A DNA stretch of 64,000 bases from IMG/VR virus record IMGVR_UViG_2654587772_000002; one strand, written 5' to 3'. The stretch comes from a virus (taxonomy: Duplodnaviria; Heunggongvirae; Uroviricota; Caudoviricetes). The stretch's first letter is position 1, and the number at the start of each line of letters is the position of its first letter. A program made the position numbers and the translations under genes. Shown here piece by piece: positions 2,679-51,312 of this stretch. The notes under the pieces were generated by a model that saw only the letters and a list, made by a program, of their open reading frames with translations, had not been told where the DNA came from and ran no database searches.

Positions 2679-3242
2679 ATGCTGAATAATAGAGACATGA
2701 ATATTAATGAACTTAAAGACTGTATTCACTATGAAGTAATCGGTAGCGAGCGTCCTTTCTCCTGGCGAAAGGCAATTGTTCGCGCAATAAAACATAGAAG
2801 AGTTCGTTATTTATTTTGGTGGCGCATAGCCAAATACCTTTTTGATAAAGGCGGATACTGTCGGAAGATTGCGGGGAAAATGGAACGTTTCATTCTTGAT
2901 AAATATAGTGTAACAGTCCCTTTAACTGTAAATATAGGGAAAGGCTTTGATATTTCTTATCTCAACGGTGTTGTTATCGGTCACAAAGTAACCATTGGTG
3001 AAAATTGTTCAATAAAACCAGGGGTAACTATTGGGCTACGTGGTGATTTTAATGATATGGATATTGTTATAGGACATAATGTGACCATTGGTTGTAATGC
3101 CACCATTCTTGGTGGCAAAGTGCGTATAGGAAACAATGTCACAATAGGTGCTCATGCATTGGTATTGCATGATATTCCTGATGATTCAACATTCATCACT
3201 AAATTTCAGTCTGAAGTTATCTGCTCGTCCTCTTGCACATAA
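2679..3242 (+). CDS. Hexapeptide-repeat (left-handed beta-helix) acetyltransferase; candidate surface-polysaccharide O-acetyltransferase moron
   Basis: Tandem [LIV]-G-x-x-x-x hexapeptide repeats ([53 protein letters not shown]); AT-rich; convergent with tfa, 3' ends overlap 37 nt. Confidence 0.75.
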
Positions 3243-46717: not shown

Positions 46718-48109
46718 ATGACTGAGAACACGACTCCAACAGCAGACTTTAGTCCTAGTAAAAGATTTTTTGTGAGTATGCTAACTCGAGATATCGACTT
46801 AAACGATGCCATACTTGATCTGCTTGATAACTGCGTCGATGGGGCTTTACGTACAATAAAAGACACAAAAAAAACTTCAAAACCATATGAAGGATTTTAT
46901 GCGAAACTTACGATTAATAAAGATGTCTTTATTATAGAAGACAATTGCGGAGGTATCCCTAAAAGCTTCCGAGAATATGCTTTTAAAATGGGACGACCCC
47001 ATCAAAAAGAAGAAGAAAATGAAGGCACCGTTGGCGTCTATGGTATTGGTATGAAAAGAGCCATTTTTAAAATGGGTAGAGATTGCTCAATACAATCGAA
47101 TAATCCCGATGGCGCATTCACTGTAGATATAACACCTGATTGGATCGATGGTGATGGTTGGAAAATACCGATGCACGAGAGTGACTATGATAACAAAAAT
47201 CCAACAGGCACAACTATAGAGATAAAAAAACTCCATTCTAATGTGGCACAAAAATTTAATGAGAGCACATATCTTACTGATCTCTTTTTACAGATAAAAC
47301 ACTCATTGTCATTTATTATTCAAAAAGGATTTAAAATAGAATTAAATGGAGTTGTTGTTGAACATAATCCGATTAACATCATAACTGATCATTCTAAAAT
47401 AGAACCATACATATATAAAGCTAAAATAGACGATGTTGATATCGATTTAGTTGTTGGCTTCTATAAAAATTTAGAAGATGACAATGATGATGTTTTAGAA
47501 AAAAGGAGTTCTGATGATGCTGGATGGACTGTCATTTGCAATGACCGCGTTGTTCTATATTGTGATAAGACACATCTCACAGGTTGGGGCTTTGCTAATG
47601 TACCAAGGTTTCATACCCAATTTATAGCAATTTCTGGGGTTGTTCGCTTTACCAGTAAAAACCCAGAAAAATTACCAATAACAACAACGAAACGAGGTGT
47701 CGATCTTAGTTCTACATTGTACAATGATGTACGAAATAAAATGATTGAAGGGATGATGCATTTTATTCGATTCACCAATCAGTGGAAAGGTGAGCATCTT
47801 GAAGAAGGGAAAAAATTACTTAAGTCAGCTCAGTCACATGAAGCTCAATCTTTATTTGAAATTACCCCACAATCAACTCCAGAAGATAAAAAAAATAACT
47901 GGTCCAACCCTAATAGAAACAAAAATGAGTGGCGATATACACCTAAGCTGCCTACCCCAGTAAAAAAAAGCTCTACTGTACGAATAATCTTCACCAGAGA
48001 GAAAGAAGATGTTAAAATTTTATCTAAATATTTCTTTGGACATGAAGATGCTAGCGCTTCTGATGTGGGGATGCAATGCTTTGATACGGTGATTGAAGAG
48101 GTGAAGTGA
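46718..48109 (+). CDS. GHKL-family (MutL/MORC/histidine-kinase-like) ATPase with about 330-aa C-terminal domain of unknown function
   Basis: Bergerat-fold motifs: N box LLDNCVDGA, G1 box IEDNCGGIP, G2 box GVYGIGMKRAIFKMG in the first ~120 residues. Confidence 0.8.
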   Translation: MTENTTPTADFSPSKRFFVSMLTRDIDLNDAILDLLDNCVDGALRTIKDTKKTSKPYEGFYAKLTINKDVFIIEDNCGGIPKSFREYAFKMGRPHQKEEENEGTVGVYGIGMKRAIFKMGRDCSIQSNNPDGAFTVDITPDWIDGDGWKIPMHESDYDNKNPTGTTIEIKKLHSNVAQKFNESTYLTDLFLQIKHSLSFIIQKGFKIELNGVVVEHNPINIITDHSKIEPYIYKAKIDDVDIDLVVGFYKNLEDDNDDVLEKRSSDDAGWTVICNDRVVLYCDKTHLTGWGFANVPRFHTQFIAISGVVRFTSKNPEKLPITTTKRGVDLSSTLYNDVRNKMIEGMMHFIRFTNQWKGEHLEEGKKLLKSAQSHEAQSLFEITPQSTPEDKKNNWSNPNRNKNEWRYTPKLPTPVKKSSTVRIIFTREKEDVKILSKYFFGHEDASASDVGMQCFDTVIEEVK

Positions 48110-49098
48110 TGTCTGGACAATACATTCCCTATCACTTAAGGCATAATAAGTCTATTGATAGAGAGATTTTTCTCGAAAGCCTAAACCTCTTAAGCAAAAG
48201 ACTAAATATTCAAGAATATACATATATAGGTTTTGGTGGTCCGATGCTTGAAGATTTTAGAATCATGCATAATCGTATCGCTCTTTCTGATATGATTTCT
48301 CTCGAAGAACAAGAGTCTACTCACATCAGACAAAAATATAATTTGCCTTATAATTGTATTGATTGTAAGCTAATATCAGCTCATGACTTTATTCTTGATT
48401 ATAGTTTTTCTAAACCATCAATAACATGGTTAGACTATGCCTCCCCGAAAAAAATACAAACGGATCTAGATGATATACACTTACTAAGTACTAAAGTAAG
48501 CTCTTTTGATATTTTGAAGGTCACCTTCCCCATAAATCCTAGTTCTTATTACCAACGTAGAGTTGGAGAAAGTTTAGATATTTTTAAAGAAGCTTTTATT
48601 AATTCATTAAAATCATTGCTTGGGAAAAAGTATCTTGATTTTAATCTTCAGATATCAAATGCAGATCTTTCAGATCGTAAGATTAAAGCTCTTTTAATAC
48701 GAATTATTACAAACGCTTTTAGATCAGCAATAGAACGTGGTCTTTCAGGACGTAAGGATAAGATTCAGTATTACCCATTATCTTTAAATCAATATAATGA
48801 TGGCAGTCATACCATGTTGACAATATCAGGTTTTTTCTCCTCAGAACAAGAATATATAGAGTTATCTAAGGCATGCGACCTTTCTAACTGGCAATTTTAT
48901 TCAACAAATTGGGAAGACGTGCAAGAAATAGCAATACCAACACTAACAATTAAAGAAAAGATAAATTTAGATAGTAAACTGCCTGATAAAGAAGCATATC
49001 AGGCAGCCGCTGAAGAGTTCTCTTTAAACGAAAATGAACGGGATAACTATTATAAATACTATAGGTTATACCCTAACTTCCAAAGAATTATGGTTTAA
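48106..49098 (+). CDS. Unknown 330-aa protein translationally coupled to the GHKL ATPase (candidate effector/specificity subunit)
   Basis: Stop/start overlap (GTGATG) with upstream gene; AT-rich; no recognisable motif. Confidence 0.6.
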   Translation: MMSGQYIPYHLRHNKSIDREIFLESLNLLSKRLNIQEYTYIGFGGPMLEDFRIMHNRIALSDMISLEEQESTHIRQKYNLPYNCIDCKLISAHDFILDYSFSKPSITWLDYASPKKIQTDLDDIHLLSTKVSSFDILKVTFPINPSSYYQRRVGESLDIFKEAFINSLKSLLGKKYLDFNLQISNADLSDRKIKALLIRIITNAFRSAIERGLSGRKDKIQYYPLSLNQYNDGSHTMLTISGFFSSEQEYIELSKACDLSNWQFYSTNWEDVQEIAIPTLTIKEKINLDSKLPDKEAYQAAAEEFSLNENERDNYYKYYRLYPNFQRIMV

Positions 49099-50217
49099 AT
49101 ATTCGGGCTGTACTCTTTTATTTAATAAATTGTACAGCCCCTTTAATATATATTCAGCAACTATTGGTGACACGCTATTTCCTATTTGTCTGAAACTATG
49201 CCATTTAGTTACATGAAAGCGAAACCAATCAGGGAAGCCTTGTAATCTAGCAGCTTCTCTTGGTGTAATCACTCTTGGATGATAAGGGTGGATCGGCCTG
49301 ACGGCTTGAAAGCTTCCTTTATCTCTAGCGGTTCCCGCCCTTAAAGTCGGGCAAAAACCATTTGGATCTAATCTTGTAGATCTTGAAATTTTATCAGTTT
49401 CCCCAAAAGATAAGGAAGCATAACGCTCTTGGACGATTTTGCTATGTAATGTTCCGGTACATCCAGATATGATATTATTTTTTAACTTAGCGATCGATTC
49501 TGTATCACCAACATTCCGAGGGATCTGCCCCCATAATTTTTCATAAAATCCCCCTTTTCGATCTTTTTTAATTGTTCGCCAACTCTCAGAGTCTGATTGC
49601 CAATTGGCATCGATAATATCTGGTAATCCATACAAAGCATCTTTTACAGTAACCGGATCAATCATTTTAGGCATAAATACTTCATCTGAAATATCAAGCT
49701 TCAATGATTTTTTTACACCGATAAAAAAATATCTAGTTCGAATAGTTGGAGCACCATAATCAGATGCTTTTACCTTGATGGGATCAAGAATATCATAATC
49801 ACCGCTAACCAAATTAAATGCTTTATTTCTAATGCCAGAATATTTCTCTTGCATAATACCTGGAACATTTTCTGCCAAAAAGAATAATGGCTGTAATTCT
49901 GATACTAAACGGTAGAAATGCATGTAAAGCTGATTCCTGCTATCATCAGGATTCCCCTTGCCTATTGAACTAAATCCTTGGCACGGAGGACCGCCAATAA
50001 TACCATCTATGGGCATATCGTTTTTAAAAAAACCCTTAATTATTTCTGCATTTAGTAAAGAAACATCTTCTTGGACGTGCAAACTTCTTGGAAAATTAAT
50101 TGCGTGAGTATTAATAGCATGTTGATCAATTTCAACTGCCATTTTAACATCAAATCCAGCACGTGCAGCACCAAGACTTAGACCTCCAACGCCAGAAAAC
50201 AAATCTATTACATTCAT
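49066..50217 (-). CDS. DNA (cytosine-5)-methyltransferase
   Basis: Motif I DLFSGVGG, motif IV GGPPCQGFS, motif VI ENV (FLAENVPG), motif X GNSVSP; about 150-aa variable target-recognition region; convergent with partner gene, 3' ends overlap 33 nt. Confidence 0.9.
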   Translation of the reverse strand: MNVIDLFSGVGGLSLGAARAGFDVKMAVEIDQHAINTHAINFPRSLHVQEDVSLLNAEIIKGFFKNDMPIDGIIGGPPCQGFSSIGKGNPDDSRNQLYMHFYRLVSELQPLFFLAENVPGIMQEKYSGIRNKAFNLVSGDYDILDPIKVKASDYGAPTIRTRYFFIGVKKSLKLDISDEVFMPKMIDPVTVKDALYGLPDIIDANWQSDSESWRTIKKDRKGGFYEKLWGQIPRNVGDTESIAKLKNNIISGCTGTLHSKIVQERYASLSFGETDKISRSTRLDPNGFCPTLRAGTARDKGSFQAVRPIHPYHPRVITPREAARLQGFPDWFRFHVTKWHSFRQIGNSVSPIVAEYILKGLYNLLNKRVQPEYLNHNSLEVRV

Positions 50218-50479
50218 ATAGTTGCAACGTCTCTTATTAGTTTCTATGTATTATAACACAACTGTTCTTGATGTTTTAACCCCATAAGATAACCTCATAA
50301 AGGCTATCCCTTGAAAATACCGGATCGCATAAATTTAATCTTTCAAAACTACTTGTCTATTAATCGAGCAATTTAAGGTTTTTTTAGTCATGTCGATACC
50401 GACATAGTTAACTAAACCCATTTCATCGTCCAACAAATGGGGGTAATACACTTTGATTTATAGTCGGGTGGGTTTTTCT

Positions 50480-50515
50480 CTATCTGCCTTTGGTGTTCAT
50501 GCCCAAGGCAGATAG
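50480..50515. repeat. Perfect 11-bp inverted repeat with 14-nt spacer
   Basis: ctatctgcctt ... aaggcagatag in the intergenic region upstream of the methyltransferase. Confidence 0.6.
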
Positions 50516-50568
50516 CCTCAAGCACCCGCAGCAATTCTACTTAACTATCCTTTTCCCGCAAATCGTTT

Positions 50569-50652
50569 TTATCCCCAGCGGCAAATCGAATACACAACCA
50601 GCGCCACCGCCATCGCAATTCCTACCGTTGTGAATGCTTCAGTCCAGGTCAT
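50569..50652 (-). CDS. Small hydrophobic peptide (27 aa), translationally coupled (ATGA) to upstream ORF
   Basis: MTWTEAFTTVGIAMAVALVVYSICRWG: single predicted TM helix; start overlaps stop of 50649..50906. Confidence 0.35.
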   Translation of the reverse strand: MTWTEAFTTVGIAMAVALVVYSICRWG

Positions 50653-51152
50653 CGTGAAACATCCTCCACGCTTATAAGTCCGCTTCGCTCCAGGTAGTCC
50701 ATCACTTTATCCGGCAATTTGCAGCCCGGTTTCGCTTTCTTCAGTTGACTAACCAATTGTTTAACCAGCATTGTCAATTCGCGAACTTGTTTCCCGGGCT
50801 CCCCTTTGCCCTGAAGCAGGGCAGCGCGGCAAGCGTTCCATCCCTCAGCATATGTTTCAGTTACACCATCGAGATGGCATGTAAGCAAATCCATTTCTTC
50901 CGGCACTACTGGCGCTGGAAAAACGGCATAGGGTGGCGTCCATTTTGGCGCTTTATCTCCAGCCGAACGCTGCTACCAGTCATCCGGTTTGTATTCATAA
51001 AAATCACCAACTGGCTCTGCTTCCAGCGATGCCAGAGCAATTTTGAATAATTCGCCCTCTACCCGTGCCATCCCTGAATTGGGGTGGCATTTCTCAATCG
51101 CTATTTTTAATTTAGCTTCTTCGATTAATTGCTTTTTGGTTAATTCAGTCAT
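50649..51152 (-). pseudogene. Early-region ORF interrupted by an in-frame TAG at 50973-50975
   Basis: ATG at 51152 and the 85-aa ORF are in the same frame, separated only by one TAG (..YKPDDW*QRSAGDKAPKW..PEEMDLL..). Confidence 0.45.
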
Positions 51153-51312
51153 TTTTCATTACCGCCCTTTCGGGCCGCCTCCTAATATTTTGAGGGTGCA
51201 GCCCCCCCTCCGGTTAAGGATTAAATTTTATTTACAGTGCTAAATTTAATTATTCAGATTTGGATTATGATTTCTCTTTCAGTTCACGCAGTTCCCTGAT
51301 TGTTAATTTGGC

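Follow-up and report, generated by a model that had tools for sequence, protein, structure and literature searches.

The DNA analysed here, a 64,000-nucleotide stretch of a tailed phage (Caudoviricetes; IMG/VR record IMGVR_UViG_2654587772_000002) referred to below as the window, carries on its minus strand, between positions 50,569 and 51,152, a mosaic early gene of 167 codons followed by an open reading frame (ORF) of only 27 codons, the start of which overlaps the stop codon of the longer gene. The longer gene has been inactivated by a single amber codon. The small ORF, on the other hand, is by its conservation a genuine, widespread and essentially unannotated phage gene, with a product that is predicted to be a single-pass inner-membrane microprotein. 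What is new is the family to which it belongs, here called WPEAF, which is absent from Pfam, PHROGs and NCBIfam. Taking all of the evidence together, we consider it probable that the locus is best explained as an amber-inactivated early gene next to a genuine microprotein gene, with the peptide as a possible partner of the protein encoded immediately before it.

A mosaic early gene interrupted by an amber codon

The features of the longer gene are as follows, with the evidence for each in brackets.

50649..51152, minus strand: 167-codon mosaic early-region pseudogene of the phrog_660 type (translation, intact orthologue, phrog_660 and the call of the Prokaryotic Genome Annotation Pipeline, PGAP)
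50973..50975, minus strand: amber codon TAG in place of Tyr60 (TAT) (alignment and 61-mer counts)
50973..51152, minus strand: 59-codon N-terminal fragment, which covers the whole N-module (translation and alignment)
50649..50906, minus strand: 85-codon residual ORF with a GTG start, downstream of the TAG (ORF list)

When translated, 51152..50649 of the minus strand forms a single frame of 168 codons, made up of 167 sense-codon positions and a terminal TGA (50651..50649). The product begins MTELTKK, reads YKPDDW up to the internal TAG at 50975..50973 and QRSAGDKAPKW beyond it, and ends VEDVSR. An initial annotation, made from the window alone, had described a 59-amino-acid (aa) ORF (51152..50973) and an 85-aa ORF starting at a GTG (50906..50649) as lying in the same frame and split by one TAG, which the translation confirms; its estimate of ~166 codons for the whole gene was close, the exact count being 167 sense-codon positions. 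It had offered two readings of this arrangement, a nonsense-inactivated gene or two adjacent genes, and had suggested comparing the codon with that in orthologues. In the DNA of E. coli PSS-07, which is 99% identical, the codon is TAT, the pairwise alignment showing a lone G/T difference at this point, and RefSeq annotates one 167-aa protein (WP_032170691.1). Within an alignment of 17 family members a tyrosine occupies the amber position in all eight of the homologues that have the same middle module. The orthologues are, therefore, continuous single genes of 167 aa with a sense codon at the position of the TAG, and PGAP flags the copy in the window's own genome, E. coli ST2747, as a pseudogene with an ‘internal stop’. 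The TAT-to-TAG (Tyr60-to-amber) change has inactivated a single 167-codon early prophage gene, and the reading as two adjacent genes falls away. On inspection of the sequence no Shine-Dalgarno (SD) sequence was found in front of GTG 50906 or of the next ATG of the distal half, and the 85-codon residual ORF is unlikely to be a separate gene.

To see how common the amber codon is, 61-mers centred on it were counted in complete E. coli genomes. They occur in 274 genomes, with TAG in 172 (63%) and TAT in 102. The carriers of TAG include O157:H7 Sakai, in prophage Sp10, EDL933 and many E. coli that produce Shiga toxin (STEC) and are not O157. Orthologues with a stop at the same place had been named beforehand as what would speak for two separate genes. 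Such genomes do exist, all 172 of them, but they carry one identical 61-nt allele rather than independently conserved split genes, and because this single 61-mer is shared by all of them their number does not reflect convergent evolution. Over the next 321 nt the TAG and TAT versions differ at only about three other places, so that the inactivation is recent; one of these differences turns the nearly invariant Leu166 into a serine in the TAG lineage. Sakai Sp10 has the same TAG, the same small ORF, the same remnant of a hok locus and the same island of cargo genes as the window (both described below), with a different N-module. The amber allele is therefore a single one; it has spread together with, and been recombined inside, an Sp10-like prophage type heavily sampled in STEC, and it is common because it travels with this prophage type, which also carries the methyltransferase island. 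The pseudogene is a case of ordinary prophage decay.

The one point that weighs against this is how frequent the amber allele is (63% of the module-bearing genomes), and because of it the 59-aa fragment might still keep a function. In its strongest form this would mean that the TAG is a functional gene split or a site of regulated read-through, and that the 59-aa fragment, perhaps together with a re-initiated C-terminal product, works in the Sp10-type prophages. Recombination has joined the allele to at least two different N-modules, and the fragment holds a complete N-module, up to the IALASLEAEP joint described below, of a protein family that is modular. We nevertheless regard a functional split as improbable, given that all 172 copies trace to a single 61-mer in one STEC-heavy prophage type, that neither the GTG nor the ATG of the distal half is preceded by an SD sequence, that every other member of the family is continuous, that PGAP calls the gene a pseudogene and that the amber lineage has lost Leu166.

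The intact 167-aa protein matches phrog_660 from end to end (E = 5.3e-50), and its only matches in PHROGs are to this family and to phrog_60, neither of which has an assigned function. Against Pfam and NCBIfam models there was nothing significant, with neither Ead_Ea22 (PF13935) nor DUF551 (PF04448) appearing at E ≤ 1; there is no detectable similarity to lambda Ea22 (BLASTP E = 3.2), and a sequence search of the PDB found no relative. The 2079 homologues are essentially all proteins of Escherichia and Shigella prophages that are called ‘hypothetical’ or are linked to DUF551. Those that cover 29-77% of the query carry PF04448, many of them joining parts of the 167-aa protein to a DUF551 C-terminus, and the position that the homologues take up ahead of the small ORF is the same. 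Members of the family combine a conserved N-module that ends in IALASLEAEP with an interchangeable middle and a conserved C-module (ELTMLVKQLVSQLKKAKPDCKLPDKAMDYLKRNGLISVEDVLR), which in the pseudogene of the window ends in KLPDKVMDYLERSGLISVEDVSR. Between Sakai Sp10 and the window the switch of the N-module falls exactly in the DNA that codes for IALASLEAEP (window 51020-51050, minus strand; L131 3480-3500), and within the mosaic family this DNA apparently serves as a joint for intragenic recombination. An AlphaFold2 model of the 167-aa protein was poor, with a mean predicted local distance difference test (pLDDT) score of 57 and a predicted template-modelling score of 0.29; its best-predicted part is an N-terminal helical hairpin (pLDDT 72-82), which lies within the 59-codon fragment.

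Ea22-like proteins of the lambdoid exo-xis region are assembled in the same modular style (PMC10834534). The resemblance to the Ead/Ea22-like and DUF551 proteins of this exo-xis or ‘ea’ region (PF13935, PF04448; PMC10834534, PMC7093339) extends to the position in an early operon, which either follows the replication genes or precedes xis-int, and to the extreme modularity with conserved joints, the homologues of the window protein having DUF551 C-termini. In addition, other annotators call neighbouring members of the array Ea22 or EaA, and there is a fusion of the small ORF with a protein that scores above the threshold of the Ead_Ea22 model. The window protein differs in that it matches neither PF13935 nor PF04448 and has neither similarity to lambda Ea22 nor a relative of solved structure. 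We therefore describe it, on sequence, as sharing modules and position with the Ea22-like/DUF551 proteins and not as a member of PF13935.

The 27-codon gene and its family

Two features make up the small gene.

50569..50652, minus strand: 27-codon microprotein gene (MTWTEAFTTVGIAMAVALVVYSICRWG) of the WPEAF family, with one predicted transmembrane (TM) helix (comparative data)
50649..50667, minus strand: initiation region of the microprotein gene, made up of GGAGG (50667..50663), a 10-nt spacer and the ATGA overlap (50652..50649) (sequence)

The tetranucleotide ATGA at 50652..50649 contains both the start of the small ORF and the stop of the frame before it, as the initial annotation had noted, and the GGAGG is situated inside the upstream coding sequence, 10 nt before the ATG. 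Averaged over 17 residues, the Kyte-Doolittle hydropathy of the peptide reaches at best 2.1, and 2.0-2.3 across six variants. This hydropathy is consistent with the single TM helix that had been proposed, and the ORF proves to be more strongly conserved than a single sequence could have shown. Two belts of aromatic residues (W3/F7 and Y21/W26) are conserved, as is, between them, a face of small residues, G11, A13, A15 and A17. The product is predicted to be a single-pass microprotein of the inner membrane.

Of 5426 complete E. coli genomes, 1610 (~30%) carry the small ORF together with its SD sequence (99 nt), at 3065 places, of which 163 are on plasmids; a single genome may have as many as 7 copies. 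It is also in 93 phage records, which include the reference Shiga toxin (Stx) phages 933W and VT2-Sakai, in which it sits between L0139 and hokW, as well as VT1-Sakai, BP-4795 and virulent Vequintavirinae phages. Yet, in spite of this conservation, it is essentially unannotated: it is missing from the annotation of every RefSeq or phage record inspected, and a few GenBank pipelines call it a ‘bacteriophage protein’. Most of the E. coli copies are 88-100% identical to one another, and a strict codon pattern run against 185,579 species genomes picked out only Escherichia and Shigella, plus two tiny contaminant-like contigs. The Rac and CPS-53 prophages of K-12 lack the small ORF, for which reason Ribo-RET data from K-12 are uninformative.

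Several lines of comparative evidence indicate that the ORF codes for protein. Exactly 27 codons are present in 111 of the 115 complete copies on viral contigs, the ratio of non-synonymous to synonymous polymorphism (pN/pS) is 0.27-0.35 and there is an excess of synonymous changes (binomial p = 8e-5), which persists for codons 8-27, where the search pattern imposes no constraint (p = 0.0016). Copies that have diverged to 68-74% nucleotide identity keep the peptide, the start, the stop and the 27 codons:

VT1-Sakai: MNWPEAFTAVGVAIAVAFILYSLFRWG
PhiR12: MSWPDAIVTLGMVFAAAFVVYSICRWG
TH18: MTWPEAFTTVGVVMAVAFAVYSVCRWG (Fisher p = 8e-5)
P0248: MNWPEAFAITGVAMAIAFLVYVICRWG (pS 0.65 versus pN 0.22, Fisher p = 0.0015)

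Where the length does vary it does so by whole codons, through in-frame indels of +2, +4 and -2. No conserved RNA structure was detected, the fold being no better than that of shuffled sequence (z = +0.35). The comparison across copies sets aside a chance origin of the 27-codon ORF and shows, as far as sequence can, a gene under protein-level constraint, the translation of which we infer.

A small number of copies are altered. In that of Shigella phage POCJ13 (L129 2001-2081) Trp3 is replaced by a stop codon; two others (L074 and L100) have lost the stop codon, giving 38-40 aa, one (L102) is truncated or recombined to 24 aa and one (L038) has an in-frame deletion of two codons. In P0149 there is a 15-aa duplication within the peptide.

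Some observations weigh against the ORF being a gene. The synonymous excess is moderate, and transition bias would raise the synonymous fraction to be expected; the variable sites are distributed 13/13/18 over codon positions 1/2/3; and the peptide was not found in the supplements of ribosome-profiling and small-ORF papers, nor did searches of the literature and its supplements for the peptide sequence return anything. Lambdoid mosaics do use short conserved joints, the IALASLEAEP DNA behaving as one, the identity of 88-100% among most E. coli copies would favour homologous exchange and a few copies are broken (POCJ13, L102, L074 and L100), so the 81 nt could conceivably be a DNA linker, a recombination joint or an RNA element that closes the Ea-type array, with an incidental frame. 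We think this most improbable, since copies as low as 68% in nucleotide identity still have the same frame, length, start and stop, with an excess of synonymous changes, the indels are in frame, there is no signal of RNA structure and relatives can be recognised at the protein level in contigs of 56-71% GC where similarity of the DNA has gone.

These more distant relatives came from a degenerate scan, which found short hydrophobic peptides beginning MTWPEAF in viral contigs of 56-71% GC. A HMMER profile searched against 1.84 billion representative proteins gave 65 clusters at E ≤ 1e-3, 14 of them at E ≤ 1e-10; many are distinct proteins of 25-60 aa with a hydrophobic helix after the pattern x-WP[ED]AF-xx-VG-x-A-x-A. 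Neither the 27-aa peptide nor the WPEAF family is covered by any Pfam, PHROG or NCBIfam model, and PADLOC gave no match. In the searches with the peptide and with the 167-aa protein, matches to DUF883_C, KdpF, TspO and MCP were all far below threshold and were disregarded. The high-GC relatives (46-50 aa; L144 5001-5141 and L146 5001-5150) read MTWPEAF[AT]xVGLAFAALGALP...RR and have a longer hydrophobic stretch. They overlap an upstream gene of 117 aa by ATGA, the protein from which gives only sub-threshold matches of coiled-coil type, and apart from one virion structural protein their neighbours have no family matches.

In two cases the peptide is part of a larger protein. P0259 (143 aa; L150 3001-3432) passes the Pfam Ead_Ea22 model, with 35.3 bits against a gathering threshold of 27, and ends in MSWPDAFAIAGVAMSIALIVFAICRWG; 6 contigs, which come from at least 3 samples, carry it a short way upstream of DUF4222, xis and int, and its DNA was checked. 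The second in-frame fusion, P0266 (206 aa), likewise has the WPEAF peptide as its C-terminal TM segment. An apparent clustering of the peptide with DUF551 proteins of 121 aa was rejected as a fusion, being an artefact of partial ORFs at contig ends. We also rejected a programmed frameshift that would fuse the upstream protein to the peptide, as the junction types share no slippery sequence.

The borders of the small gene are sharp. BLAST homology starts exactly at the ATG, behind unrelated genes, and stops at the stop codon; among 112 viral-contig copies at least ten unrelated sequences follow directly after it, including terminator hairpins and the hok promoter. Three unrelated C-terminal modules, ending in EDVLR, PPQEVNQ and IEQEVNR, are found upstream, always with the GGAGG and the ATGA overlap. 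The same GGAGG and ATGA are present in VT1-Sakai, PhiR12, TH18 and P0248, and the ATGA in the high-GC relatives. For copies of the E. coli type the upstream gene is always an Ea22-like/DUF551 mosaic, after which the small ORF is always the last cistron, whether it follows the replication genes, precedes xis-int or is in a virulent phage. The slot behind it holds, in other genomes, an intact hok/sok locus, type II toxin-antitoxin pairs, KilA-N/Ant-like genes, an unknown 298-aa protein together with hok or other cargo (L149 1709-2220; L010, L007, L053, L023, L071). The small ORF thus marks the end of the operon, before a recurrent site of ‘moron’ insertion, and is a useful landmark for finding morons.

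Translational coupling through ATGA or TGATG is known from trpB-trpA and from many phage operons. The present junction has the 4-nt overlap, the SD sequence within the upstream coding sequence and a predicted pairing of the SD in common with such gene pairs. It is unusual in that the downstream cistron has only 27 codons and in that SD and ATGA move as a unit, which imposes the last five codons on unrelated upstream genes. In the window the SD region is predicted to pair with codons 4-7 (-12.7 kcal/mol for a 52-nt segment, a value without a shuffled control), and hairpins that would sequester the SD are predicted, again without such a control, in both main junction types; the sequences of the two differ, and the hairpins are to be taken as a hint only.

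In the window itself the pair is probably impaired. Because the upstream gene breaks off after its N-module, no ribosome would reach the ATGA junction, and initiation independent of coupling may be poor because the local fold pairs the SD region. The window copy also has a private change of Pro4 to Thr at a near-invariant position, and its exact 99-nt version, with Thr4, is present in only 3 records of the E. coli collection. The module is thus probably non-functional here, while intact versions are common elsewhere.

Possible roles of the microprotein

The natural in-frame fusions to an Ead/Ea22-like protein, together with the conserved ATGA junction, suggest a partnership between the peptide and the protein that precedes it. 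As the last cistron of the early operon, followed by a terminator or by the moron slot, the small ORF would be started through its GGAGG and ATGA by ribosomes that finish the preceding gene. The peptide would then be made alongside an Ea22-like, often coiled-coil, protein and may serve as its membrane-embedded partner or anchor, packing through the small-residue face G11-x-A13-x-A15-x-A17 between the two belts of aromatic residues (W3/F7 and Y21/W26). This role, in which the peptide is co-translated with the preceding Ea22-like protein and is its membrane partner or anchor, is the one that we favour, albeit tentatively. Somewhat more speculative is the extension to the whole of WPEAF, as an undescribed family of phage microproteins, with the 27-aa peptide as its founding member among well-studied phages, that are coupled to, and occasionally fused with, Ea22-like coiled-coil proteins and that would tether these to the inner membrane.

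E. coli has a number of single-TM microproteins of 25-50 aa, among them AcrZ, MgtS, KdpF and CydX, which were missed by annotation and which pack against a larger partner; KdpF and CydX are co-transcribed with theirs. The WPEAF peptide is like these regulatory microproteins in size, in having one TM helix and in having been missed by annotation pipelines. It has no sequence relationship to them (the KdpF model gave E = 0.17, which is not significant), and it differs further in being phage-borne, multi-copy and horizontally mobile, the protein with which it would pair being a candidate only.

A number of points count against a partnership. The three upstream C-terminal modules are unrelated and a common docking surface is not obvious; no more than seven residues at the N-terminus of the peptide and three at its C-terminus would protrude from the membrane; fusions are rare, with P0266 on only one contig; the fusion implies that the N-terminus of the helix is inside, with which the weak positive-inside prediction for the free peptide, with an arginine only near the C-terminus, disagrees; and there is no such small ORF after ea22 in lambda.

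The heterogeneity of the upstream partners, together with the strong constraint on the peptide in a virulent Vequintavirinae phage, would fit with a peptide that is an independent effector, acting during early infection on an inner-membrane protein of the host such as a transporter, a protease or a component of DNA entry or defence, in which case the link to the upstream gene would be one of shared operon only. A small-residue face with aromatic belts is typical of microproteins that pack against helices, and a module present in so many copies per genome would seem to be of general use. No result indicates a host target, however, PADLOC gave no match, and the conserved ATGA and the fusions to Ead/Ea22-like proteins point instead to the upstream protein, so that an independent effector, though a possible explanation, seems to us a doubtful one.

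The initial annotation had likened the peptide to small membrane toxins, and a toxin of type I-like or Kil-like character, which would damage the membrane on prophage induction, has to be considered. In size and hydrophobicity it does resemble TisB, DinQ, ShoB and Ldr, it lies directly upstream of hok loci in about half of its contexts and in one natural chimera (P0244) its N-terminal half is joined to the C-terminal half of Hok. The comparison does not, however, support the likeness. As both flanks change right at the borders of the ORF there is no conserved antisense RNA, no dedicated promoter and no antitoxin, and by its junction the peptide would be translationally coupled to an ordinary gene. 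Genomes have up to seven copies of it and virulent phages have it too, and it matches neither Hok/Gef (PF01848) nor any other toxin model; the match to sok in Rfam belongs to the separate remnant of a hok locus described below. A toxin is for these reasons unlikely.

The partnership that we favour has implications beyond this locus. Gene products of the Ea22-like type are known only for shifting Stx phages and lambda towards lysogeny. If the peptide is indeed their membrane partner, it would offer an entry point into the mechanism of the Ea22-like region and hence into the control of Stx prophage induction. If the WPEAF proteins are tethers, they would provide the first mechanistic handle on how the exo-xis or ‘ea’ region biases the decision between lysis and lysogeny in lambda and in Stx phages, and this would extend to unrelated phages of high GC content.

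The truncated hok locus, the cargo island and the surrounding region

Downstream of the small ORF are the following features.

50470..50568, minus strand: remnant of a hokW-type hok/sok locus (alignment to 933W and O157 strain 4276; Rfam)
46718..50469, both strands: cargo island that replaces the rest of the hok locus (context; 46718 is not a mapped left limit)
49066..50217, minus strand: C5 DNA methyltransferase
48106..49098, plus strand: Methyltransf_35 ‘O-methyltransferase’, convergent to the C5 methyltransferase
46718..48109, plus strand: HATPase_c_3 ATPase, likewise convergent to the C5 methyltransferase

The pair had been placed directly next to the cargo island. It is indeed adjacent in a rough sense, but approximately 100 nt of truncated hok/sok (50568..50470) intervene before the homology of the backbone ends. 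What the window keeps is the hok promoter (-10 TAGAAT, 50539..50534), followed by ~57 nt from the start of a hokW-type mRNA, with its 5′ hairpin. In 933W and in O157 prophages the same stretch runs on into sokW, mokW and hokW, whereas in the window the homology stops at ~50470 (compare L005 2585-2950). The Rfam model for sok (RF01794) scores 50.2 bits at 50527..50403 against a gathering threshold of 59, and only model positions ~1-57, the first third, align well. There is no Hok-like ORF between 50568 and 50218, and the sok promoter is absent, like the ORFs of mok and hok. As judged from these alignments the hok locus, the toxin-like element of this neighbourhood, is a separate, truncated remnant, the rest of it having been replaced by the island. 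The leftover hok promoter points towards the methyltransferase gene.

The microprotein gene and hok/sok (hokW/mokW/sokW of 933W; RF01794, PF01848) have in common that a small hydrophobic peptide is encoded, and an intact hok/sok locus begins ~30 nt after the small ORF in 933W, in O157 prophages and in about half of the viral contigs. The 27-aa peptide is, however, encoded by a separate gene upstream of the hok promoter and has no Hok sequence, no mok, no fold-back elements and no Sok; the small ORF is also found in the absence of any hok locus, and the hok locus of the window is itself truncated. The chimera P0244, of 44 aa, consists of the N-terminal half of the microprotein and the C-terminal half of Hok (MTWPEAFTTVGIAMA followed by LVTRKDLCEVRSRTGQTEVAVFTAYESEE) and is called a Hok family toxin by PGAP. 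It has apparently arisen by a deletion between two ‘ALV’ codon stretches, which would place a Hok-like toxin under translational coupling instead of control by sok.

An identical island with an identical junction is present in Sp10 of O157:H7 Sakai (ECs_1953-1955). When the region was searched with PADLOC only the C5 methyltransferase matched, to models of type II methyltransferases, while the 167-aa protein and the peptide gave no match. The island may be an uncharacterised modification or defence module.

The whole region is that of a Rac-like E. coli prophage and is 100% identical to E. coli ST2747 (NZ_CP007394.1). On the minus strand the order is kilR, sieB, racR, ydaS, ydaT, the replication genes (ydaV-like), DUF1627, DUF977 and then the 167-codon pseudogene with the small ORF, after which come the methyltransferase island and DUF1367/DUF1364/DUF1133. 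Pseudogene and small ORF, both on the minus strand, are members of the early rightward operon and lie 3′ of the replication genes. In the spacer between DUF977 and the pseudogene, at ~51200-51210, there is a homopolymer run of G/C with a length of 7 in the window and 8 in the orthologous region of PSS-07; it sits beside an AGGAGG, which is followed by a GC-rich hairpin.

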